Positions 5,175-23,269 of a stretch of DNA of 64,000 bases are shown in pieces. The position numbers and the translations under genes are program-made. Source of the stretch: an uncultured Nitrospiraceae bacterium (GTDB lineage: Bacteria; Hydrogenedentota; Hydrogenedentia; Hydrogenedentales; SLHB01); the NCBI GenBank assembly GCA_964493915.1, contig CAZBQH010000200.1, positions 12,182 to 76,181 on the forward strand, given 5' to 3'. The notes below the pieces were generated by a model, which did not search any database, was not told the DNA's origin, and worked only from the letters and a program-made list of their open reading frames with translations. Positions within the stretch are counted from its first letter, which is position 1. Each line of letters starts with the position of its first letter.

Positions 5175-5293
5175 AGGTCTGAAAAAACCTCCTATGTTTT
5201 GACACCCATACGTAGTGGTCAGCGGATCGCCGTCGCGCGCACCCGCGTGAGGTTTGGATTGTTGCAATATGACTGTATGAAGGAGCTTGGCGC

Positions 5294-6058
5294 ATGCATT
5301 GGACCTTTTTGATGCGTTGCGTGGCTGTACTTTTGATGCTGGGCGTCAGCGCCGCAGCTTCGGCGCAGGAACAGGGCGCCCCCAGCGATTCCGGATCGGC
5401 TGGGCCGTCCGCCGTTTCTCCCGCAAAAACAGCGGAGCAGATGACCATGAAGCAGATGCTTCAGCAGGGTGGGTTTATCTTGTGGACTATCATTCTTCTG
5501 AGCGTTGTCGCTTTGGGAATGGCCATCTACCTTTTCCTGACACTGACCCCGGCCCGTGAAGCGCCCGAGAGCTTTCTCCGCCGTGCCGTAGCGCAGATTC
5601 GCGCCGGCGATTTGCGCGGCGCCTATCAAATGTGCGAAGGACGCGACGAGCTGTTGGCGAATGTGCTCCGCTCGGGCCTTAGAATGTCCGGCCACGAACG
5701 TTATGTGGTCCAGGAAGCCATGGAAAGCGAGGGCGAGCGGGGCGCAACAGCCCTCTGGCAGAGAATCTCGTACTTGAACAACATCGGCGTGATCGCTCCC
5801 ATGCTGGGATTGCTGGGGACGGTTTGGGGCATGATTCAGGCTTTTGGGGGCATCGCTTACGATGACTCGCAAGTCAAAGGGATCATGATAGCGGCGGGTG
5901 TCGCCCAAGCGATGATTACGACCGTTGCGGGGCTTTCACTGGCCATTCCAGCCATGCTTGTGTACTTTTACCTGCGTGGCCGCGTGGTGAAGATCATTGC
6001 CGAAGTCGAGGCGCAATCGAGCGAACTTGTTGAATTGCTCACACGGAATGAAGGCTGA
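5294..6058 (+). CDS. MotA/TolQ/ExbB proton-channel family protein (with N-terminal signal peptide)
   Basis: 254 aa. A signal-peptide-like N-terminus is followed by the ExbB/TolQ core with three TM segments (…GVIAPMLGLLGTVWGMIQAF…). Its stop overlaps the exbD start (TGATG). Confidence 0.8.
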   Translation: MHWTFLMRCVAVLLMLGVSAAASAQEQGAPSDSGSAGPSAVSPAKTAEQMTMKQMLQQGGFILWTIILLSVVALGMAIYLFLTLTPAREAPESFLRRAVAQIRAGDLRGAYQMCEGRDELLANVLRSGLRMSGHERYVVQEAMESEGERGATALWQRISYLNNIGVIAPMLGLLGTVWGMIQAFGGIAYDDSQVKGIMIAAGVAQAMITTVAGLSLAIPAMLVYFYLRGRVVKIIAEVEAQSSELVELLTRNEG

Positions 6059-6486
6059 TGCGATTTGGACACCGCGGCCCAACGGAGGCCGAAAACATCC
6101 CCTTGGCGCCCCTCATTGATATTGTGTTCCTGACCTTGGTCTTTTTTATGACCACCTCCGTCTTTTCGACCCTCGAAAGCGAGATTGATATTACCTTGCC
6201 CACTGCGGACAGCGCCGTCCAGACGGAGCGCTCGCGGGGCGAAATCTATATCAACGTGCGCCAAGACGGCCAGATCGTGCTCAACAATCGCGAGCTCACC
6301 ATCGATGAGTTGCAGGATGTTCTGAACCGCGTAGCGGCCTTGGTGCCGGGCGGCGCAGTGATTGTGCGGGGTGACGAGAAGGCGATGCTGGGCCGTATTG
6401 TCGCTATTCTGGACTGCTGCCGGAAAGCCGACATCCAGAACGTGAAGTTCGCTGCGCTTAGAGCAGCCCCGGAAGACACGGAGTGA
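6058..6486 (+). CDS. ExbD/TolR biopolymer transport protein
   Basis: 142 aa. The N-terminal motif PLIDIVFLTLVFFM is typical of ExbD/TolR. A single TM is followed by a periplasmic domain. Confidence 0.8.
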   Translation: MRFGHRGPTEAENIPLAPLIDIVFLTLVFFMTTSVFSTLESEIDITLPTADSAVQTERSRGEIYINVRQDGQIVLNNRELTIDELQDVLNRVAALVPGGAVIVRGDEKAMLGRIVAILDCCRKADIQNVKFAALRAAPEDTE

Positions 6487-6487
6487 T

Positions 6488-8833
6488 ATGCAAGCACTGC
6501 GCTTTGGAATCGCCGTATCGTGTATCTTGCTTGCAGTGCAGAACCCGGCGATTGCCCAGGCGTCCTCGCCGGAACAGGACCAGTTTGACTTTGCGAGCGC
6601 TCTCTTCCAACACGGTTTTTTCGACCTGGCGGCCCAGGAATTCCACAGTTACATCGAGCATTTCCCTGACAGTCCGCAAATCCAGACCGCCCTGTACCGT
6701 CTTGGCGAGTCCGAATACGCTCTGAAAAACTACGAGGCCGCGCTTTCCGCTTTCTCGAAAGTGCTCGAGTTGAATGTCGGCCCGGAGACCCGGCAGCGGT
6801 CGCTCCTGCGAAAAGGCGAGATTCTCTACCGGCTTGCCAGGCACGCCGAGGCAGCGGCAACGCTCGAGCACGTGACAGGGGCTGAAGTCGATCCTGAGAT
6901 ACGCAGCGGCGCCTTGTACTATCTCGGCAGGGCTTTTCTCGATGCAGGCGATAGCGCGCGAGCGGCCCAGGCCCTCGATACGCTGATCGAGGCGCTACCC
7001 GACAGTCCTCTCGTGCCTTACGCACGGTATCAACTGGCGTTTGCGAAGCTTGCGCTTGGCGAATCCGAGGCAGCTGCCCTTCAATTCTCAGAGGTCGCTT
7101 CGTCCAATGCCGAGGCGGCCCTGTGCATCGCGGCGCGTTTCCGTGCGGCGGAAACCTACGACAAGATTGGCTGGTACGATGCAGCCGCCCTCGCCTATAA
7201 ACAATTGCTCGACGAGTCTCCCGAGAGTTCCTATGCGCAGCGTGCCCTGTATGGCTATGCGTGGGCGTTGTACCGGGGTGGCAAGTTCTCGGAAGCGGCG
7301 GAAGCAGCAGCCGGCTATCTAAGCAAGTATCCCGACGCCCCTGAGGCAACCGGCACGCTGTACCTGCAAGCGAATTGCCTTCAGGAGTTGAAGCGCTATC
7401 CCGAGGCGCTGGCCCTTTACCAAAAGGTCCGGGAGAAGCAGCCGGATTCTGAATTCGCAGTGCGCGCCGCGCATCAGACGGCCTGGACCCTCTACTTCAG
7501 CGGGGATGCCACCGAGGCAAAACGACTGGCGACGGCCTTTCTAAAAGACTATAAAGAAAACAAACTTGTGGGAGACGCGGCTTTCTTGCTTGGCACAATC
7601 CTCATCGACGAGGGCAACTACAGCGACGCCTACGATGCGTTCCGGCTGGTGGCGGAGAAGTATCCGGAGAGCAAATTCGGACCCGAAGCCCTGTACAAAG
7701 CAGGGGAATGCCTTGCCCAGATGGGACGCACCGGCGAGGCTGCCGAGCTTTTCGAGAATTTCGTGAAAGCCTATCCGTCCAATCCTCTTGCAGAGGAGGC
7801 TATGCTTCGTGCAGCAGACGCGGAATTCTTCTCGGCCGCTTTCGACGATGCCATCGCCAAGTACAAGCAAGTGCTCGAGTCGAGTCCCGATCCACAGGTG
7901 GAGCGCGATACACTCCATCGGCTCGCGGCAACTTACCACAACAAGCGCGATTTCAAGGCCAGTGCGGCAGTATTTCAGACGCTGCTGGAAAAGTTCCCAG
8001 AGAGCCCCTATGTGGCTGAAGCCCATTTCCGCATTGCCGAATTCCAGTTGCGGGAACAACAGGCGCCGGTGCCAGCGATTGAATCCTACCAGAAAGCGTA
8101 TGACTTGGACTCCTCAGGCCCCTTTGCAGGCAGGGCGGTTAAAGGCCTTGGCCTGGCCCGATACGAAACGAAGGACTACGATGGAGCAGCCGAGCATTTC
8201 CTGAAAGTGATAAGGGAATTTCCGTCCGTATCGCTTAATGAAGAGGCCTATGCATGGCTTGGCCAGCGGCTCTATGACCAGCAACGTTGGAACGACGCAG
8301 CTATTGCATTCGGCGCACTCCTGAAGACCAGCCCGAACTACCCGAATCCGGAGAGGGTACAGTTCAAGATAGCCCAATGCAGCGAGCAAGCCGGCGAGCT
8401 TGATACCGCTCTCAAACGCTATAGCGAGGTAGCGGCGACTGCCCCGCTAAGCGCCTCCGCCGTCGAGGCGCGCTTCCGCATGGCCAAAATATACGAGGCG
8501 CAGAATAAGGCCGACGAGGCCATGAGGCTTTACGAGCAAGCCGCCAGCACGAACACGGGCGACATTGCGGCGCGTGCCCGTTTCAGGCTCGCCGAGCTGT
8601 ACGAACAGAAGGGCGACTTCGAGCAAGCGGCAAAGAGCTATATCCTTGTCGCCATACTCTTTTTGCATCAGGAGTTGTCCCCGGAGGCATACTGGCGTGC
8701 GGGCCAGTGTTTTGAGAAGATGCAATCCGTCGACTCCGCGGTAAAGGCCTATCGTGAGCTTGTTGCGGAGTTTCCCGACAGCGCTCAGGCAGCCAATGCT
8801 GCGCAGCGCCTCGCCGAACTGAACAAGGGTTGA
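6488..8833 (+). CDS. tetratricopeptide (TPR) repeat protein, secreted/periplasmic
   Basis: 781 aa. Signal peptide MQALRFGIAVSCILLAVQNPAIAQA. Repeated 34-aa A/Y/L-rich TPR-like units run through the whole length. Its start is 2 nt after the exbD stop. Confidence 0.75.
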   Translation: MQALRFGIAVSCILLAVQNPAIAQASSPEQDQFDFASALFQHGFFDLAAQEFHSYIEHFPDSPQIQTALYRLGESEYALKNYEAALSAFSKVLELNVGPETRQRSLLRKGEILYRLARHAEAAATLEHVTGAEVDPEIRSGALYYLGRAFLDAGDSARAAQALDTLIEALPDSPLVPYARYQLAFAKLALGESEAAALQFSEVASSNAEAALCIAARFRAAETYDKIGWYDAAALAYKQLLDESPESSYAQRALYGYAWALYRGGKFSEAAEAAAGYLSKYPDAPEATGTLYLQANCLQELKRYPEALALYQKVREKQPDSEFAVRAAHQTAWTLYFSGDATEAKRLATAFLKDYKENKLVGDAAFLLGTILIDEGNYSDAYDAFRLVAEKYPESKFGPEALYKAGECLAQMGRTGEAAELFENFVKAYPSNPLAEEAMLRAADAEFFSAAFDDAIAKYKQVLESSPDPQVERDTLHRLAATYHNKRDFKASAAVFQTLLEKFPESPYVAEAHFRIAEFQLREQQAPVPAIESYQKAYDLDSSGPFAGRAVKGLGLARYETKDYDGAAEHFLKVIREFPSVSLNEEAYAWLGQRLYDQQRWNDAAIAFGALLKTSPNYPNPERVQFKIAQCSEQAGELDTALKRYSEVAATAPLSASAVEARFRMAKIYEAQNKADEAMRLYEQAASTNTGDIAARARFRLAELYEQKGDFEQAAKSYILVAILFLHQELSPEAYWRAGQCFEKMQSVDSAVKAYRELVAEFPDSAQAANAAQRLAELNKG

Positions 8834-16090: not shown

Positions 16091-16822
16091 GTGTCGCAAG
16101 AGCGAACAGAAGCCATCGTATTGCGCGGGGTCGACTTCGGCGAGACAAGTCGAATCGTTACCTTTTTCTCCCCTGAGCGGGGACGGCTGACGTGCATCGC
16201 CCAAGGCGCCCGGCGGCCGAAGAATCGGTATGGCGCGGCGCTCGACACGCTGAATCGCTTGGAGTTGGTGTATTATTGGAAAGATGGGCGGGAAGTTCAG
16301 AAACTGGGCGAGGTAAGCCTGCTGGAAGACTTCGGGCAACTAAAGGCAGACCTCGACAAAAGCCTGTTCACGATGCTTCCCGTTGAGCTGGTGTATCGAA
16401 TTGCCCATGCAAACGAACCCTCGTCTGAACTGTATGGGATGCTCATGCATGGACTGCATGAGATGACGGCATGGCGCGGCGATGTCCGGACGCACGCTGT
16501 GTGGCAGGCAGTTCAGTTGGTTTCGGCGGCTGGTTTCCGGCCGGACCTCGGCGATATCAACCGGACGGGCGAAGGCGGGCCCTTCGCATATGCCCGGGGT
16601 CTGGCCGATTCGCAGGAAACGGCCGGCTGCAAGTTGGAAGCGGACGAGGTCCGCGCGTTGCGCGCGCTGGTGCTTGAGGAATCGCGTTGCCCGGACCTTG
16701 TGGTGAGTGGCGCCTTGTTCGAAGCCCTGTGCGGCTATTTCCGGTGGCAGCTCGATACGGATTTTCGAAGCTTGCGCGTCATCCGTGAAATGTACGGTTC
16801 GCGCAAAGGACGCGCTACGTAA
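16091..16822 (+). CDS. recO: DNA repair protein RecO
   Basis: 243 aa, GTG start. The N-terminal OB-fold pattern EAIVLRGVDFGETSRIVTFFSPERGRL and a central Zn/Cys-poor bacterial RecO-like region are present. Confidence 0.8.
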   Translation: MSQERTEAIVLRGVDFGETSRIVTFFSPERGRLTCIAQGARRPKNRYGAALDTLNRLELVYYWKDGREVQKLGEVSLLEDFGQLKADLDKSLFTMLPVELVYRIAHANEPSSELYGMLMHGLHEMTAWRGDVRTHAVWQAVQLVSAAGFRPDLGDINRTGEGGPFAYARGLADSQETAGCKLEADEVRALRALVLEESRCPDLVVSGALFEALCGYFRWQLDTDFRSLRVIREMYGSRKGRAT

Positions 16823-16849: not shown

Positions 16850-18664
16850 ATGGCAGATTCCCAAAGTAAAACGCGTAATTTCTGCATCATAGCTCATATC
16901 GACCACGGCAAGTCGACGCTGGCGGACCGTATCCTGCAGGAGACAGGGGCTGTTGATGAACGGACGCTCAAGGAACAGACCCTTGACACCATGGATCTTG
17001 AGCGAGAGCGGGGGATTACAATCAAATCTGCGACGGTCCGGCTGAACTACCGGGCTGTCAACGGCCAGGACTATACCCTGAATCTCATAGACACCCCGGG
17101 CCATGTGGATTTCTCCTACGAAGTGTCCCGAAGTCTAGCTGCATGCGAAGGCGCCCTTCTGGTGGTCGATGCGGCGCAGGGGGTCGAGGCCCAGACGCTG
17201 GCCAACGCATACAAGGCTGTCGAGCAGAACATCGAAATTGTCCCGGTGATTAACAAGATCGACCTGCCGGGCGCGGATGTTGCAAGTGTACGCAGACAGA
17301 TTACGGAAGTGGTGGGCCTCGATGGCGACCATGCCCTCCTGACCAGCGCCAAGGAAGGCATAGGAACCCAAGACGTTCTCGAGGCGATCGTGAGCAGGAT
17401 TCCCCCGCCGCAGGGCAATCCAAGCGCGCCGCTCCGCGCCCTGATTGTGGACGCGATCTATGACCTGTACCGAGGCGTGATCGTCTATGTGCGCGTTGTG
17501 GAAGGTCGCCTTGTGAAAGGTATGAAGGTCCAGATGATGGCTACAGGCGCCCGGTACGACGTGTCTGAGCTGGGCGTGCAGACCCCCGAAATGAAGCCCA
17601 TAGACGAACTGCAGGCGGGAGACGTTGGCTACCTGATCTGCAACATAAAGACCTTGCAGGATACCAAGATCGGCGACACGGTCACAGGCGCGCACAACCC
17701 CGCCTCGAAGCCTTTACCGGGCTACAAGGAAGTCAAACCGGTAGTGTTCTGCGGACTGTATCCGGCGGTAGCCACGGATTTTCAGGAGCTGCGCGACGCC
17801 CTTGAACGGCTGCAGCTCAATGATTCGTCTTTCCAATTCCACCCTGACAGTTCGGACGCTCTGGGTCTGGGGTTCCGGCTTGGTTTTCTGGGTCTGCTCC
17901 ATATGGAAATTGTGCAGGAACGACTCGAGCGCGAGTTTGGCCTGACTCTCGTCATCACCATGCCGAACGTGGCTTATCAGGTAACGGACAGGGACGGGAC
18001 CACCGTCACGATCCAGAACGCCTCGCAAATGCGTCCTCAGGCCGAGGTGGAACGGATTGAGGAGCCCTACATCGAGGCGGAGATTATCTGCCCGACCGAG
18101 TATTTGAGTCCGGTCATCGAGTTATGCAAGAAGAAGCGCGGCGTTCACGTCCGGGTGGACTACATTGACGCCAAGCGCTGCATGGCGGTATATGAGATGC
18201 CGCTGGCTGAGATTGTTATTGACTTCTACGACAAGCTGAAGACCTTCACCCGGGGTTACGGGTCCCTCGAGTACCAGATTATCGGTTTCCGGGAGAGCGA
18301 TCTGGTAAAATTGGACATCTTATTGAACGGCGAGCCTGTGGACGCGCTCTCGACGATTGTTCACAGGCAGCGTGCCGAAGGGGTAGGGCGGCAATTGGCG
18401 TCGAAACTGCGCAAACTGATTCCGCGCCAGCAGTTCGAGGTTGCAATACAGGCCGCTATCGGCAGCCGGATTATCGTGCGCGAAACGGTTAAGCCATTGC
18501 GCAAGAATGTGACGGCCAAGTGCTATGGAGGGGACATCACACGCAAACGCAAACTGCTTGAGAAGCAGAAAGAAGGCAAACGTCGGATGAAGCAGATTGG
18601 TGCAGTCGAGGTACCGCAGGAGGCTTTTATGGCCCTTCTGCGCGTTAGTGAGGAGTCGGATTAA
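16850..18664 (+). CDS. lepA: elongation factor 4 (LepA) translational GTPase
   Basis: 604 aa. [18 protein letters not shown]1 motif, [12 protein letters not shown], and the C-terminal LepA-specific domain. Confidence 0.95.
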
Positions 18665-18670
18665 CCCATT

Positions 18671-19936
18671 TTGACCCCCAAGAATGAAGCCGGTAAGAAG
18701 CAAGACACAGGCGGAAAAGGGCTTAGCCTTATTCGCAGTATTACAGGTCCATGGACTTGGGAGAACCTTTGGGGATGGCTGAAAATAATCCTCATCGTCC
18801 TTGTCATCCGATGGATCTGGTTCGAACCCTACAGCATCCCGTCCGGATCGATGGAACCCACCCTCCATGGAGATCCACGATTTCTTCGCGGAGACCGGGT
18901 CGTAGTGAACAAGTTCTGGTTCGGTCCTCGTATCCCCTTTACCAATAAACGCTTGTTCCGATGGCACGAGCCTGAACGGTGGGACATCGTCGTCTTTAAC
19001 TCACCCGAGCCGGACGCGCAACACAAGGTGCTCATCAAACGCGTCGTGGGCCTCCCAGGAGAACGGGTTCATATCGAGGGAGGCAGAGTCTACGTGAATG
19101 GGAAGCCCCTCGAGTTGCCCGAGGATATACAGCATGTGAGCTACACGTCTGCGCCCTCTATGAGGTCATTCGAGCGGTTGAGCGGCGGCGAGCTTAGGCT
19201 TCTCATGCTCCAGCATGAAATGCGGTACGGGATCCTGCCGGACGAGCGTTACAGCGTCGTGCCAGAGAACCATTACTTAGTGTTGGGCGACAACAGCGCC
19301 GACAGCAAGGACGGCCGGTATTTTGGATGGGTCCCCCACGAGAACCTGATAGGGCGGGCCTTTGCAATCTGGTGGCCTCTGAGCCACCGCCGCGATCTGA
19401 CTGGCTTCACCAACACTTGGTGGGGCATGGCATTGCTTCTCGGACTCCCCGCACTTTTGCTCCTCTATGAGGGATCTCGCGCCTTTTTCTGGGCGTCGTG
19501 GCGCGTCTGCTCCAACGATTTGCCGGGGGAGCTCCGCGAAGGCGAGCATATCCTCGTCAGTCGTATTGCGTTAGGTTTGCGGCTGCCGTTTTCGAGGCGG
19601 CGGATTATTCCGGGCCGTGGTTTACGCAGGGGGGAGACGGTGGTACATGTTTCAGAGCAAGACGGTTCGGGGCGGTCTCTGAAACTTTCGCGAGTCATTG
19701 CTGTTCCAGGCGAAACAGTCAATGCTCGACTTGATATGCCCTGCGTCGAGCGCAAAAAAAACTCCCAAATCGTCCGCGACGGATACTATCTCGTAACCGA
19801 CGGCAATCCGGCTGCCGGAACGGGTTGCGTCTCGAGCCTCGACCTGGTTGGAGTTGCACAGCTTGTCTGGTGGCCCTTGCACCGGCGTCGAAAGCTTGCA
19901 GCGCCTGGGGCTGCTAATTCCACACGGACTGCCTAG
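18671..19936 (+). CDS. lepB: signal peptidase I with an additional degenerate peptidase-like C-terminal domain
   Basis: 421 aa. The first half is canonical (SGSMEPTL catalytic Ser box, LIKRVVGLPGE Lys box, GDNSADSKDGRYFGW box). After a second TM (WWGMALLLGLPALLLLY) there is a second SPase-like repeat lacking both catalytic residues (CSNDLPGEL, LSRVIAVPGE). Confidence 0.75.
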   Translation: MTPKNEAGKKQDTGGKGLSLIRSITGPWTWENLWGWLKIILIVLVIRWIWFEPYSIPSGSMEPTLHGDPRFLRGDRVVVNKFWFGPRIPFTNKRLFRWHEPERWDIVVFNSPEPDAQHKVLIKRVVGLPGERVHIEGGRVYVNGKPLELPEDIQHVSYTSAPSMRSFERLSGGELRLLMLQHEMRYGILPDERYSVVPENHYLVLGDNSADSKDGRYFGWVPHENLIGRAFAIWWPLSHRRDLTGFTNTWWGMALLLGLPALLLLYEGSRAFFWASWRVCSNDLPGELREGEHILVSRIALGLRLPFSRRRIIPGRGLRRGETVVHVSEQDGSGRSLKLSRVIAVPGETVNARLDMPCVERKKNSQIVRDGYYLVTDGNPAAGTGCVSSLDLVGVAQLVWWPLHRRRKLAAPGAANSTRTA

Positions 19937-19937
19937 C

Positions 19938-20699
19938 GTGACCTGGAAAGCGAAGAGCGGCAAGCGCCGGGCGGCTGTTCCCAGAACGGGGCGCCGGGGC
20001 TTGGTTGTGCAGCTCGGTTGTGGTTTGCTCTTGCTCGGGGTTTTGTTCTGGTACTCGCGACAACTCGAAACCATCGAACCGGTTGAATTGCTGACCACAA
20101 TTCCCCTAGCCGTGTCTGTCGCCTTCGTTGTTCGGTGGATCGCGATCGAGCCATACAAGATCCCTTCCGCTTCAATGAGGCCGGCCCTCGAGCCCGGCGA
20201 CCGCATTTTCGTGAACAAATGGGTCTATGGGCTCCGCTTTCCACTTAACGGGATGCGCGTCCCTTTTACGACGCGCGGCGTCCGTTATGCGGCCCGCCGC
20301 TTGTGGCGGGGTCGACGGCCGGAACGGGGAGACATTGTTGTGTTTCGTACGGTGGAAGAAGGGGAAACACACGACATCTTGGTCAAGCGGGTCGTCGGGA
20401 AGCCGGGCGAACACATACTTATTCGAGACGGACGGATCCATGTAAATGGAACGCCTCTCGAGACGCCGCCTTCGATTGCCCGCAACTACTACACGGCGCC
20501 GCGCGGCTTTCCCGTCATGCACTACGGCATTTCCGGCGGGAAGACCTACTCGCTTGTCCCGCCGGACCATTATCTGCTCCTTGGCGACAACAGCGCAGCG
20601 AGTCGGGACGGCCGTCTCTTCGGCTGGGTACCTGATGAACATATCTTGGGGCGCGTCTGCGCTATCTGGTGGCCTATCCGCCGGTGGCGCCGTTTGTGA
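19938..20699 (+). CDS. lepB: signal peptidase I (second copy)
   Basis: The track ORF 19848..20699 overlaps the upstream gene out of frame. The in-frame GTG at 19938 lies 1 nt after the upstream TAG, giving VTWKAK…TM…IPSASMRPAL (Ser box), LVKRVVGKPGE (Lys box), GDNSAASRDGRLFGW. Confidence 0.75.
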   Translation: MTWKAKSGKRRAAVPRTGRRGLVVQLGCGLLLLGVLFWYSRQLETIEPVELLTTIPLAVSVAFVVRWIAIEPYKIPSASMRPALEPGDRIFVNKWVYGLRFPLNGMRVPFTTRGVRYAARRLWRGRRPERGDIVVFRTVEEGETHDILVKRVVGKPGEHILIRDGRIHVNGTPLETPPSIARNYYTAPRGFPVMHYGISGGKTYSLVPPDHYLLLGDNSAASRDGRLFGWVPDEHILGRVCAIWWPIRRWRRL

Positions 20700-21808
20700 T
20701 GATTGGTGTTTACATCCATATACCCTACTGCCGCCGCTTGTGCCCTTATTGCGACTTTGTCCGTCAACAAGTGTCCGGCGACCCTCCCGAGGCCTTTACA
20801 GACGCTCTGTGCCGTGAGATTGCGTCTTTCGAGGGTCCGCGAGAAGCAGGGACCCTGTTTATCGGCGGCGGCACGCCTTCAATCATGCCGCCAGACGCGC
20901 TGGCGCGCATTTTCAAGGCGTTGGAAAGGCGTTTTGCGTTTTCTGACCCTGTCGAAGCGACCATCGAGGCCAATCCGGACGACGTTGCGCCGGAGTTGGC
21001 CCAAGCTTGGGCAGATCTCGGCATCAATCGCGTCAGCTTGGGTGTTCAGAGTTTCAGCGATGCGGCCCTGAGCTATCTTGGACGGCGGCACGACGCGAAG
21101 GCGGCGCTGCGGGCCTGCGAGACCGTCGCAGAGCACTTCGCCAACTGGAGCATGGACCTTATCTTTGGTGCGCGTCCGATCGAGGCGTGGGAGGAGACTC
21201 TCGATACCTGCCGAGCGCTGAGGCCTCCCCATGTCTCGGCCTACGGCTTGACGTTCGAAGAAGGCACGCCCTTCGCCCGGCGGGCCCATGAGGCCGTTGA
21301 CGATGAGACCTACCTCGACTTATACAGGCTCGCTGCGGCGGTGCTCGACGCATACGAGCGCTACGAGATCTCGAACTATGCCTTTCCCGGGTACGCCTGT
21401 CGTCACAACCTCATCTACTGGCGAAACGAGGAGTATGTCGGCTTTGGACCGGGGGCCTATTCGTTTATCGACGGAGTGCGCGCCCGGAATACGCCTGAAC
21501 TTGAGGTCTATTACGACGGCCCTGGACGAAAAACAGAGTCCCTCGATCTGCCGCAGCGGGAGGTTAAGACGGAAACGCTCATACAGCATTTCCGGCTCGC
21601 TGCGGGCATTGACAAAGGGTACTACAGAGCGCGGTTTGGTTCTGAACTACAGGTGGACTTTGGCGACAGACTTGCAGGACTGGTTGACAGGGGTCTACTG
21701 GTCGAGACAAAAGACGCCTTCCGTCCCACGGATGTTGGGTTTGAACTGAACAACGAGATCGGCCTTGCCCTTGTTGGCGATTCCCCCGCCGGCCATCAAT
21801 CAGCCTGA
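20699..21808 (+). CDS. hemW: radical SAM heme chaperone HemW (coproporphyrinogen III oxidase-like)
   Basis: The ATG at 20699 overlaps the lepB TGA (TGATG). The N-terminus MIGVYIHIPYCRRLCPYCDF is the CxxxCxxC radical-SAM motif in a typical HemW context, followed by the HemN C-terminal domain. Confidence 0.8.
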   Translation: MIGVYIHIPYCRRLCPYCDFVRQQVSGDPPEAFTDALCREIASFEGPREAGTLFIGGGTPSIMPPDALARIFKALERRFAFSDPVEATIEANPDDVAPELAQAWADLGINRVSLGVQSFSDAALSYLGRRHDAKAALRACETVAEHFANWSMDLIFGARPIEAWEETLDTCRALRPPHVSAYGLTFEEGTPFARRAHEAVDDETYLDLYRLAAAVLDAYERYEISNYAFPGYACRHNLIYWRNEEYVGFGPGAYSFIDGVRARNTPELEVYYDGPGRKTESLDLPQREVKTETLIQHFRLAAGIDKGYYRARFGSELQVDFGDRLAGLVDRGLLVETKDAFRPTDVGFELNNEIGLALVGDSPAGHQSA

Positions 21809-21893: not shown

Positions 21894-22979
21894 TTAGAGC
21901 TCGCCAAGGTTCCTGAAGAGATACAGACCCTCTTTGCCGGGGGCGATAATGTCCTTCCAACCGTTGCCGTCGAGATCCTCGACCCAGAAGTAGATCCCGG
22001 CCCCGCTGCTTTTGTCTGGCTCGCCGTAGTCGAGGGTAATCCGCTCGAACGCACCACGGTTGATGTTGAAATAGTAGATTCCGACGGGGTCGGCCGCGCC
22101 AGGGTCATGTCCCTGGTGAGCCCGGTAGCGTTTTCCGGTGATCAACTCGACCTCTCCGTCATTGTCGATATCGACGAGTTGCAGGTCGTGGTACTGGCTC
22201 CGGTGCAAGTCGATGTCGTGCTTGATCCATGTCCGATTACCGCCGCCATCTTTTTGCTGCTCCCACCAGAAGAGTCCGTAGTCGTGGCCCATCCCAACGA
22301 TGAGGTCGTTGAGACCGTCTTTGTTAACGTCGTAAACCAGGATCGGCACGCTCGCGGTGCCGCCCAGTTCGAACTCCTGGTGGAAGGTCCACGCCTCCTC
22401 ATAGGGCCGTTGAGGCGCTTCCCACCATCCGTTGTTCAACACGATGTCCATTCTGCCGTCGCCGTTGATGTCGCCAAACCCTAGGCCGTGCCCTTGCGCG
22501 CCCGTCGTGATGGAGACCTGCTTGAACGAGGCGGCCGGTTTGCCGCCGGCGTCGCGCTCGAGCTTGAAGATCGACACGGGCTCGCCGGGGCAATTGGGAA
22601 TGACCTCGATTTCGCCGTCGCCGTCAATGTCAAAGAAAGTCGGCCGCTCGATGTTGCCGATTTTTCCAATGTCATGGACCTTCCACTCTTCAGCTGATCC
22701 TTTCGGGTTTTCCCGCCAACGAAGCGTTTCGTCAAACCATCCGCCGGTGATGATGTCGAGATAGCCGTCGCCGTTCACATCCATAGGGTAGTCCGAGAAG
22801 TCGTCGAAGTAGTCGCCCACCGCCTTTACGCTGCAGATTTTGTGTTTTGTCTTGAAGTCCGGTCCTTCGAACCAGTACTCGCCCGATACGATATCCAGAA
22901 TGCCGTCCTTATTGACATCAAACGCTGAGGCAGCCTCATAGGTGACATCCCCGATGCGCGTCTTCTCGAACTTGAGCAT
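21894..22979 (-). CDS. FG-GAP/VCBS repeat-containing protein (ASPIC/UnbV-like beta-propeller)
   Basis: The track ORF runs to 23039, but GGAGG is spaced 8 nt before the ATG at 22979 (MLKFEKTRIGD…). It carries repeated DxNxDGxxD FG-GAP-type Ca-binding units (DVNKDGILDIV, DVNGDGYLDII, DIDGDGEIEVI, DINGDGRMDIV, DVNKDGLNDLIV, DIDNDGEVELI, DLDGNGWKDII). Confidence 0.55.
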   Translation of the reverse strand: MLKFEKTRIGDVTYEAASAFDVNKDGILDIVSGEYWFEGPDFKTKHKICSVKAVGDYFDDFSDYPMDVNGDGYLDIITGGWFDETLRWRENPKGSAEEWKVHDIGKIGNIERPTFFDIDGDGEIEVIPNCPGEPVSIFKLERDAGGKPAASFKQVSITTGAQGHGLGFGDINGDGRMDIVLNNGWWEAPQRPYEEAWTFHQEFELGGTASVPILVYDVNKDGLNDLIVGMGHDYGLFWWEQQKDGGGNRTWIKHDIDLHRSQYHDLQLVDIDNDGEVELITGKRYRAHQGHDPGAADPVGIYYFNINRGAFERITLDYGEPDKSSGAGIYFWVEDLDGNGWKDIIAPGKEGLYLFRNLGEL

Positions 22980-23269
22980 GTCGTGTTCCTCCGTTGCTAT
23001 ACTAAAAAGGGTCATTGCCGCAATGCACACGGAATACATGGTTTTGGTCCTCCGAAAGGCGCCAAGTTATGGTAAATTGCATAGTACCATACCATATGGC
23101 GGCGAAGCATGTTCGAGGTTTTGAGCCGGTCGAACGCAGTGTAGTCGACTCCACGCAAAGGCTGTCAGTTTGCGTTACGTCCTTCAGGCACGATATGATC
23201 GCATGCTTTCACGTTTCCCACTCCTGCCGTTGACGGCGATTTCCGAAGACTACAAGGACTGACAAATAT

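Follow-up and report, generated by a model that had tools for sequence, protein, structure and literature searches.

Type I signal peptidase (SPase I) is essential, heavily studied, and a target for antibiotics. To our knowledge, the signal peptidase forms known so far are single-domain enzymes whose sole folded part faces outward. For SipX, SipY, and SipZ of Streptomyces lividans an extra C-terminal membrane anchor has reportedly been found, with the C-terminus located in the cytoplasm. Catalytically dead members of the family are SipA of Streptococcus pyogenes (SipA/LepA; PDB 4N31, 4K8W), which carries Asp and Gly at the positions of the catalytic Ser-Lys dyad and is essential for pilus assembly/polymerisation (PMC4049620), and SpsA of Staphylococcus aureus, which carries Asp33 and Ser75 at these positions and is encoded beside the active spsB (PMC10849702). 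Here we describe two adjacent signal peptidase genes, lepB1 and lepB2, on a 64,000-nucleotide stretch of an uncultured Hydrogenedentota genome deposited as Nitrospiraceae (contig CAZBQH010000200.1, positions 12,182 to 76,181, of assembly GCA_964493915.1), hereafter the window. They belong to two paralogous types, termed A (lepB1) and B (lepB2). The lepB1 product consists of an N-terminal anchor (TM1), an active catalytic domain (domain 1), a second transmembrane helix (TM2), and a second S26-fold domain that lacks the dyad (domain 2) and that would probably lie on the cytoplasmic side of the membrane. In the literature searched, coverage of which was incomplete, we found no described LepB with an active S26-TM-dead S26 architecture, no tandem or cytoplasmic S26 domain, and no study of a Hydrogenedentes signal peptidase.

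By its domain 1, lepB1 is predicted to encode a working type I signal peptidase and a bona fide S26A member. The protein scored 172.1 bits against PF10502 (cut-off 22.9) and 165.7 bits against TIGR02227 (cut-off 47). An earlier reading of the window made from the letters and their translations (the sequence-only reading) had recognized a canonical LepB domain from a Ser box, SGSMEPTL, and a Lys box, KRVVGLPGE, and these were found to hold the nucleophile Ser60 (18848-18850) and the general base Lys123 (19037-19039), respectively. Boxes B-E are present, with GDNSADSKDGR as box E, and a WWP box is located at the end of the domain. Ser60, Met61, Lys123, Arg124, Asp214, and Arg216 were unchanged in all 35 homologues aligned. 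The AlphaFold2 (AF2) model of the full-length protein had a predicted local distance difference test score (pLDDT) of 82.5 and a predicted template modelling score (pTM) of 0.72.

TM1 is preceded by a basic tail and a conserved TGPWTxxN motif (alignment A1). We considered this cytoplasmic motif as a contact for domain 2 and rejected it, since it was equally common in A-type proteins without domain 2. Many A-type homologues (e.g., P0044, P0048, P0060, P0063, and P0099) carry an insertion of ~60-90 aa between boxes D and E of domain 1 (alignment A1, columns ~260-380). In the lepB1 of the window this insertion is short (aa ~160-190; 19150-19240), and the AF2 model has helices at residues 164-168 and 173-183 and its lowest pLDDT of domain 1 in this region.

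The second half of lepB1 is a true S26 homologue, its similarity to the family being far beyond chance. Residues 250-421 alone matched PF10502 with 24.1 bits (E 3.8e-5), just over the gathering cut-off of 22.9, and TIGR02227 with 31 bits (E 1.9e-7), which is under the model cut-off of 47. When the two halves of the protein were compared by BLASTP they matched with E 3e-10 and 23% identity, and the second half matched lepB2 with E 7e-10; the alignments to domain 1 and to lepB2 both cover the full domain, reaching from box B as far as the WWP box. When 26 homologous second domains were combined into a profile (A2), it matched E. coli SPase I (1T7D, 1B12) with E 3e-15 along the entire catalytic domain and also retrieved the inactive SipA of S. 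pyogenes. Modelled alone by AF2, domain 2 reached a pLDDT of 86.3 and a pTM of 0.77, and Foldseek returned E. coli SPase I, S. aureus SpsB, and SipA as the closest PDB structures (probability 1.00 for the SPases), with human SEC11 (7P2Q) as a weak structural match.

Both dyad residues are replaced in domain 2. The position of the nucleophile is occupied by Asp283 (19517-19519, in CSNDL) and that of the general base by Ser340 (19688-19690, in LSRVIAVPGE). This BLASTP-based assignment bears out the sequence-only reading, in which a second peptidase-like repeat with mutated Ser and Lys boxes (CSNDLPGEL and LSRVIAVPGE) and a retained C-terminal WWP box, located at aa 400-402, had been pointed out. 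Across the 35 homologues the Ser column of domain 2 was found to contain A/D/M/I/P/G/V/H, with Ser not among the commonest residues, while the Lys column was Gly in 33. The same alignment showed conservation of the motifs GD.V.VNR, FGLR.PF, GR.P.RGE, G-R-V-x-G-x-P-G, and VWWP, the conserved residues being mainly fold-determining Gly, Pro, and hydrophobic positions. With both dyad residues gone, domain 2 is predicted to be catalytically dead across the family.

On which side of the membrane domain 2 resides depends on TM2. This hydrophobic helix, WWGMALLLGLPALLLLY (aa 250-266), comes after domain 1 and before CSNDL. The AF2 model shows it as a 23-residue helix (250-272), with the first strand of domain 2 following from residue 274. 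The 17-mer has a mean Kyte-Doolittle hydropathy of 2.09 in the two-domain forms, and no further hydrophobic segment was found after TM2 in lepB1. In the S26 profiles (PF10502 and TIGR02227) it is the N-terminal part, i.e., the anchor, to which TM2 aligns, so the duplicated unit would have included the anchor. In 40 homologues without domain 2, TM2 is followed by short basic tails, e.g., RARRKRKRDKKV, SRLRRRRRGQRRK, and RHFLRERRR; these proteins have on average 5.5 Lys and Arg in the 15 residues after TM2 vs. 2.3 before it, and the C-terminal flank is the more basic one in 36 of the 40. Domain 2 itself has a net positive charge in 32 of 35 proteins while domain 1 is about neutral, which points weakly to the cytoplasm.

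These observations give good support to TM2 being a genuine Nout-Cin transmembrane helix, and to a location of domain 2 on the cytoplasmic face, opposite the active site. Domain 1 must be periplasmic for cleavage, and since TM2 would run Nout-Cin with no later hydrophobic segment behind it, domain 2 is expected in the cytoplasm, where it would have no part in the periplasmic cleavage of substrates. The suggestion in the sequence-only reading that the pseudo-protease domain acts in substrate binding, which would be next to the active site, is thereby made unlikely by the predicted orientation of TM2 and the polybasic tails of the short homologues.

Assemblies from NCBI, JGI, ENA, and Logan were found to contain more than 100 homologue clusters of full-length lepB1. 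Identity to lepB1 is 31-51%, coverage reaches ~90% or higher in most of them, and lengths are ~400-480 aa. All named homologues are annotated as "signal peptidase I [Candidatus Hydrogenedentes/-ota]." When the linker motif D[FL][TS]GF[TS]x[TAL][WF]W was used as a degenerate pattern to scan 185,579 species genomes, 96 relatives were identified, of which 79 loci were kept, nearly all from Hydrogenedentota metagenome-assembled genomes (MAGs); the tandem architecture that we looked for in homologues is shared by these clusters and loci. An exhaustive HMMER search, run with the domain-2 profile on 1.84 billion representative proteins, returned just 88 at E<=1e-30, and the weaker matches inspected as examples were ordinary single-domain LepBs. 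The two-domain family appears narrow and essentially specific to the phylum Hydrogenedentota. P0340 (labelled Myxococcales) and P0313 were considered as two-domain proteins of other phyla, and were found to be single-domain LepBs with N-terminal extensions.

A number of Hydrogenedentota-type lepA-lepB loci have been deposited as Nitrospirales/Nitrospiraceae (L012, L021, L027, L035, L037, L046, L048, L051, L052, L059, L063, L065, L066, and L077), and further unrelated labels were seen on L049 (Bathyarchaeia), L029 (FCB group), and L030 (Rhodothermaeota). Several of the oddly labelled contigs come from assemblies that contain further contigs of this kind. The labels are probably binning or labelling errors in public MAG records.

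Hidden Markov models (HMMs) for domain 1, for the linker with TM2, and for the domain-2 core were mapped on all open reading frames (ORFs) of the 79 loci and the window. The usual layout was found to be lepA followed by tandem lepB genes, A then B; lepA was directly upstream in most related loci, and hemW downstream in at least 15. An A gene with domain 1, TM2, and tail, followed by a full-length B gene, was found in 23 loci, and both genes were full-length in 15-18 loci. The combination of a full-length A gene with a B gene consisting of domain 1 only was seen once, in the window, which is the reverse of the common pattern: domain 2 is kept in lepB1 and gone from lepB2, while most relatives keep it in the second gene. 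A single lepB gene was present in the full-length form in 17 loci and as an A gene with domain 1, TM2, and tail in another 17; for five of these single tail-only loci a full B-type gene was located on another contig of the same assembly. Domain 2 was missing from both genes in none of the 44 two-lepB loci, a figure of at least one copy per locus that is biased by a search query containing the linker and domain 2.

A neighbour-joining (NJ) tree was built from the four domain classes together with single-domain outgroups from Omnitrophota. All domain 2 sequences were monophyletic, with A and B as sister clades, and domain 1 of A and B was monophyletic against the outgroups. This topology of the domain 2 clade implies that the internal duplication predates the tandem lepB duplication. 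Long-branch attraction could inflate the monophyly of domain 2 in this tree; nevertheless, the shared Gly-for-Lys replacement and the shared linker and TM2 argue for a single origin. The most ancient event thus appears to be the internal duplication of an anchor plus S26 domain unit, followed by the tandem gene duplication and then by differential loss. The intragenic duplication proposed from the sequence alone is in this respect supported, but as an ancient and phylum-wide event and not a local one.

Selection on the two domains was assessed from the ratio of non-synonymous to synonymous substitution rates (dN/dS, omega; Nei-Gojobori) in ortholog pairs with dS below 1. Omega ranged from 0.05 to 0.29 for domain 2 (~25 pairs; median near 0.19 by eye) and from 0.01 to 0.20 for domain 1 (near 0.08). 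Between the window and L080, a JGI contig of a close relative, omega was 0.166 for domain 2, 0.112 for the sampled part of domain 1, and 0.22 for lepB2. Domain 2 is clearly under purifying selection, more relaxed than that on domain 1, and does not look like a decaying remnant.

Altogether, we consider it probable that lepB1 encodes an active signal peptidase joined through TM2 to a dead but selected S26 module, which would be cytoplasmic and non-catalytic. In this model an ancestor of the Hydrogenedentota sampled here would have duplicated the unit of membrane anchor and S26 domain within the gene, and the resulting two-domain gene would then have been tandemly duplicated downstream of lepA to give the A and B paralogues. 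Domain 2 would later have been lost from either paralogue in different lineages, in the window from lepB2. Domain 1 would cleave in the periplasm, with domain 2 placed mirror-like on the cytoplasmic face.

Several observations speak against this model. The placement of domain 2 is deduced by sequence logic, and the Lys and Arg residues flanking TM2 are near-equal in number in the two-domain forms (2.8 vs. 2.5), so that the short-tailed homologues are the sole source of the positive-inside signal. The evolutionary rate of domain 2 is about double that of domain 1. Domain 2 was also repeatedly lost from one paralogue (the 23 loci with a TM2-tail gene and a full gene, the 17 single tail-only A genes, and lepB2), and its function must therefore be dispensable in at least one copy. 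The search bias described above likewise weakens the apparent retention of one domain 2 per locus, and no partner, ligand, or conserved polar surface motif of domain 2 was identified.

The near-equal flanking charges would fit a periplasmic domain 2 that forms a pseudo-dimer beside domain 1 and shapes or extends the substrate site, like Imp1/Imp2 or SEC11 with their partners. Characterised S26 domains, including the dead SipA and SpsA, are all extracytoplasmic (PMC4049620, PMC10849702), domain 2 has kept the WWP box, which in SPases sits at the membrane interface, and the pTM of the full-length AF2 model suggests a defined arrangement of the two domains. We nevertheless find a periplasmic location unlikely. 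The end of domain 1 leads directly into a hydrophobic helix (17-23 residues) and from there into the first strand of domain 2, a third hydrophobic segment that could recross the membrane is missing, the same helix precedes polybasic tails in the short forms, which is a cytoplasmic signature, and the net charge of domain 2 is positive in nearly all proteins.

Alternatively, domain 2 could be a functionless relic of the old duplication, harmless and slowly being lost. The missing catalytic residues, the faster evolution, and the repeated independent losses together with degenerate versions (lepB2, the A-type short forms, and P0296/P0300) are all in agreement with this. However, the low dN/dS, also in the lineage of the window, is not what such a relic would show, and domain 2 has been kept in both paralogue clades since before their split. 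It also folds confidently in the AF2 model, its fold-determining Gly/Pro motifs and the Gly at the Lys position are conserved, and no two-gene locus was found to lack it in both genes. A relic is in our opinion quite improbable.

If domain 2 is indeed a cytoplasmic module under selection, it may serve as a non-catalytic binding, scaffold, or anchoring module. We tentatively rank generic binding or scaffolding as the most likely of these roles, and regulation or binding in a general sense, as the sequence-only reading had it, is possible. A peptide or protein partner could be bound through the retained S26 beta-cleft, an idea which comes from the domain 2 positions matching Phe84, Ile86, Leu95, and Ile144 of E. 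coli SPase I, which we take to be pocket residues; these positions stay hydrophobic. Domain 2 could also dimerise. The related S24 domains of LexA and UmuD do so. Finally, domain 2 could act as a counter-anchor that locks the TM1-TM2 hairpin against the inner leaflet, which is suggested by the relatives that lost the domain, where a polybasic tail stands in its place and appears to take over from it.

A far more specific proposal is that domain 2 represents the first S26 fold working on the cytoplasmic face, i.e., a pseudo-peptidase "receptor" whose retained beta-cleft would hold signal peptides/preproteins or a part of the targeting and translocation machinery, such as SecYEG/SecA/YidC, the ribosome, or the co-transcribed LepA/EF4. 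We regard this as doubtful. If true, delivery inside the cell and cleavage outside would be physically linked by the receptor, and lepB1 would exemplify a bitopic membrane protease with an internal repeat of inverted topology. That domain 2 is still a protease that uses other residues, e.g., a cytoplasmic LexA-like self-cleaving or regulatory one, as the clan that S26 shares with S24 (LexA/UmuD), whose enzymes work in the cytoplasm, might suggest, is very improbable, because the 35 homologues have no conserved Ser, Thr, Cys, Lys, or His in domain 2, the nucleophile column being as varied as described and the base column Gly.

An assembly artefact, in which a frameshift or a collapsed or mis-joined tandem lepB duplication created the 421-aa frame, can practically be dismissed, since L080 comes from another sample and has an unbroken frame with mostly synonymous differences (41 synonymous and 24 non-synonymous in domain 2), the full-length homologue clusters come from several assembly sources, and halves that are only 23% identical cannot be collapsed repeats. 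L080 shares the lepB1-lepB2-hemW layout with the window. It was reached via P0122, a relative of lepB2; a contig search with the lepB1 product of the window itself gave no match. The 421-aa and 253-aa products were called identically by the NCBI and JGI gene callers. A 731-aa LepA-LepB "fusion" from another assembly (P0023) was also considered. Its LepA end was found to be a frameshifted reading of the normal LepA C-terminus; being an assembly error in the lepA 3' end, it provides no link between LepA and LepB and is unrelated to the window.

The second lepB gene of the sequence-only reading is a SPase I gene with an intact dyad, Ser79 (20172-20174) and Lys150 (20385-20387), and with GDNSAASRDGR as box E. 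Its product scored 134 bits against PF10502 (cut-off 22.9) and 133.2 against TIGR02227 (cut-off 47), and gave no match to the linker/TM2 or domain-2 HMM. It is, however, not simply an ordinary lepB. A length of 253 aa was seen in just one other form, a relative with 85% identity, and the matches at 43-58% identity and above ~220 bits are ~350-443 aa long, nearly all of them two-domain proteins of 405-443 aa. In the NJ tree lepB2 falls inside B-type domain 1. Since its nearest relatives past the 85%-identical one are almost all two-domain proteins, lepB2 would have lost TM2 and domain 2, and it appears to be a derivative that shed them recently.

The N-terminus of lepB2 (19938-20180) starts with a very basic tail, VTWKAKSGKRRAAVPRTGRR, containing 8 Lys/Arg. 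The tail is followed by two hydrophobic segments, GLVVQLGCGLLLLGVLFWY and LLTTIPLAVSVAFVVRWIAI, with an acidic 11-residue loop between them. Were both segments to cross the membrane, the intact catalytic domain would be cytoplasmic by the positive-inside rule; either the first segment is not membrane-spanning, or the topology would have to be unusual. The hydrophobic segments before the catalytic domain vary in B-type genes (L056, L057, L064, L065, L067, L076, and others; ~5200-6800 in locus coordinates). Some B-type paralogues apparently have three segments, e.g., IIILIGAYIIY, LWWVGLGVFVVGLHLFFF, and SIALGLALLIRWPIA, and others apparently have two, the first one being rich in Ala and Gly. The N-terminal anchoring of the B-type paralogue thus seems to be evolutionarily plastic.

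The locus has the order recO-lepA-lepB1-lepB2-hemW, which is a housekeeping context, and the coordinates of its features are collected in Table 1. ORFs, Pfam matches, and a reading of the junctions agree with the earlier account of lepA followed by two signal peptidase I genes and of the way these genes abut. The lepA stop codon TAA (18662-18664) is followed by six bases and then by the TTG start codon of lepB1 at 18671; the two genes are in one reading frame, and the gap amounts to TAA plus 2 codons. The TAG stop codon of lepB1 (19934-19936) is separated by one base from the GTG of lepB2 at 19938, as had been described. The TGA stop codon of lepB2 (20697-20699) shares its A with the ATG of hemW (20699-20701), which is the TGATG overlap noted previously.

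Table 1. Features of the recO-hemW region and of the lepB1 product, in window positions.
Feature	Position	Strand	Basis or remark
recO	16091-16822		co-directional with lepA-lepB1-lepB2-hemW, tightly packed
lepA (EF4), 604 aa	16850..18664	+	Pfam GTP_EFTU, LepA_C, EFG_C
lepB1, A-type paralogue, two-domain signal peptidase I, 421 aa, TTG start	18671..19936	+	PF10502 172 bits, TIGR02227 165.7 bits
TM1, N-terminal membrane anchor, aa 30-49	18758..18817	+	AF2 helix 30-49
Domain 1, predicted active S26 catalytic domain, aa 50-243	18818..19399	+	Ser60/Lys123 dyad
Linker RD[FL][TS]GF (conserved) and TM2 (helix aa 250-272)	19400..19486	+	AF2 helix
Domain 2, dyad-less S26-fold domain, aa 273-421	19487..19933	+	homology searches, AF2, Foldseek
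lepB2, B-type paralogue, single-domain SPase I, 253 aa, GTG start	19938..20699	+	PF10502 134 bits
hemW, radical SAM, HemN_C	20699..21808	+	Pfam

Long ORFs on the opposite strand (18320-18967, 19652-20218, and 20172-20642, all -), with 156-215 aa, overlap with lepA, lepB1, and lepB2. We regard these as spurious, since they are expected by chance at ~59% G+C and the sense genes have strong family matches. Just downstream of hemW, a convergent ORF of 381 aa (21894-23039, - strand) contains repeated D-x-[ND]-x-D-G-x-x-D motifs (DVNKDGILDIV, DINGDGRMDIV, DVNKDGLNDLIV, and DIDNDGEVELI), which, judged from the translation alone, are typical of FG-GAP/VCBS-type repeats.

Across Hydrogenedentota a dead copy of a peptidase appears to be kept under selection, most likely on the inner side of the membrane. 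If this placement holds, the family would be a natural case in which duplication of an anchor together with its domain forced the copy onto the other membrane face and into a new, non-catalytic role. It would then also add to SipA and SpsA a third pseudo-signal-peptidase that arose independently, in which Asp and Gly/Ser were reached by convergence, and might offer a handle on the cytoplasmic contacts of signal peptidase. The annotation "signal peptidase I" used throughout hides both the two-domain architecture and the differential loss between the tandem paralogues.

Compared to LepB/SpsB (MEROPS S26A), domain 1 and lepB2 share the N-terminal anchor, the Ser-Lys dyad, and boxes B-E, and domain 2 matches in fold and in the order of its boxes. 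lepB1 is located downstream of lepA, as in E. coli. It differs by the addition of a second TM helix and a dyad-less S26 domain of ~150 aa that is presumably cytoplasmic. In signal peptidases that are assembled with paralogous or non-catalytic partners, such as mitochondrial Imp1/Imp2 and the eukaryotic SEC11 complex, the partners are separate polypeptides on the side of the active site, and Imp1 and Imp2 are both active.

SipX, SipY, and SipZ resemble lepB1 in that their catalytic domain reportedly lies between two TM helices, and the A-type relatives consisting of domain 1, TM2, and a polybasic tail look alike. In contrast to these, lepB1 has a folded pseudo-peptidase of ~150 aa in place of a short basic tail, and its TM2 is homologous to the S26 anchor and not newly acquired.

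SipA and SpsA have, like domain 2, an S26 fold in which both dyad residues are replaced. The Asp33/Ser75 of SpsA is the same pair as Asp283/Ser340 in the window, while the Gly that is the domain 2 family consensus at the Lys position is also found in SipA. However, SipA and SpsA are Firmicutes proteins in their own right, extracellular and anchored at the N-terminus, SipA being encoded in pilus/sortase loci, whereas domain 2 is fused C-terminally to an active enzyme behind TM2, is probably cytoplasmic, and is found in a lepA-lepB-hemW context. Because domain 2 groups with domain 1 of Hydrogenedentota and not with the single-domain outgroups from Omnitrophota in the NJ tree, its origin appears to be independent of that of SipA and SpsA.

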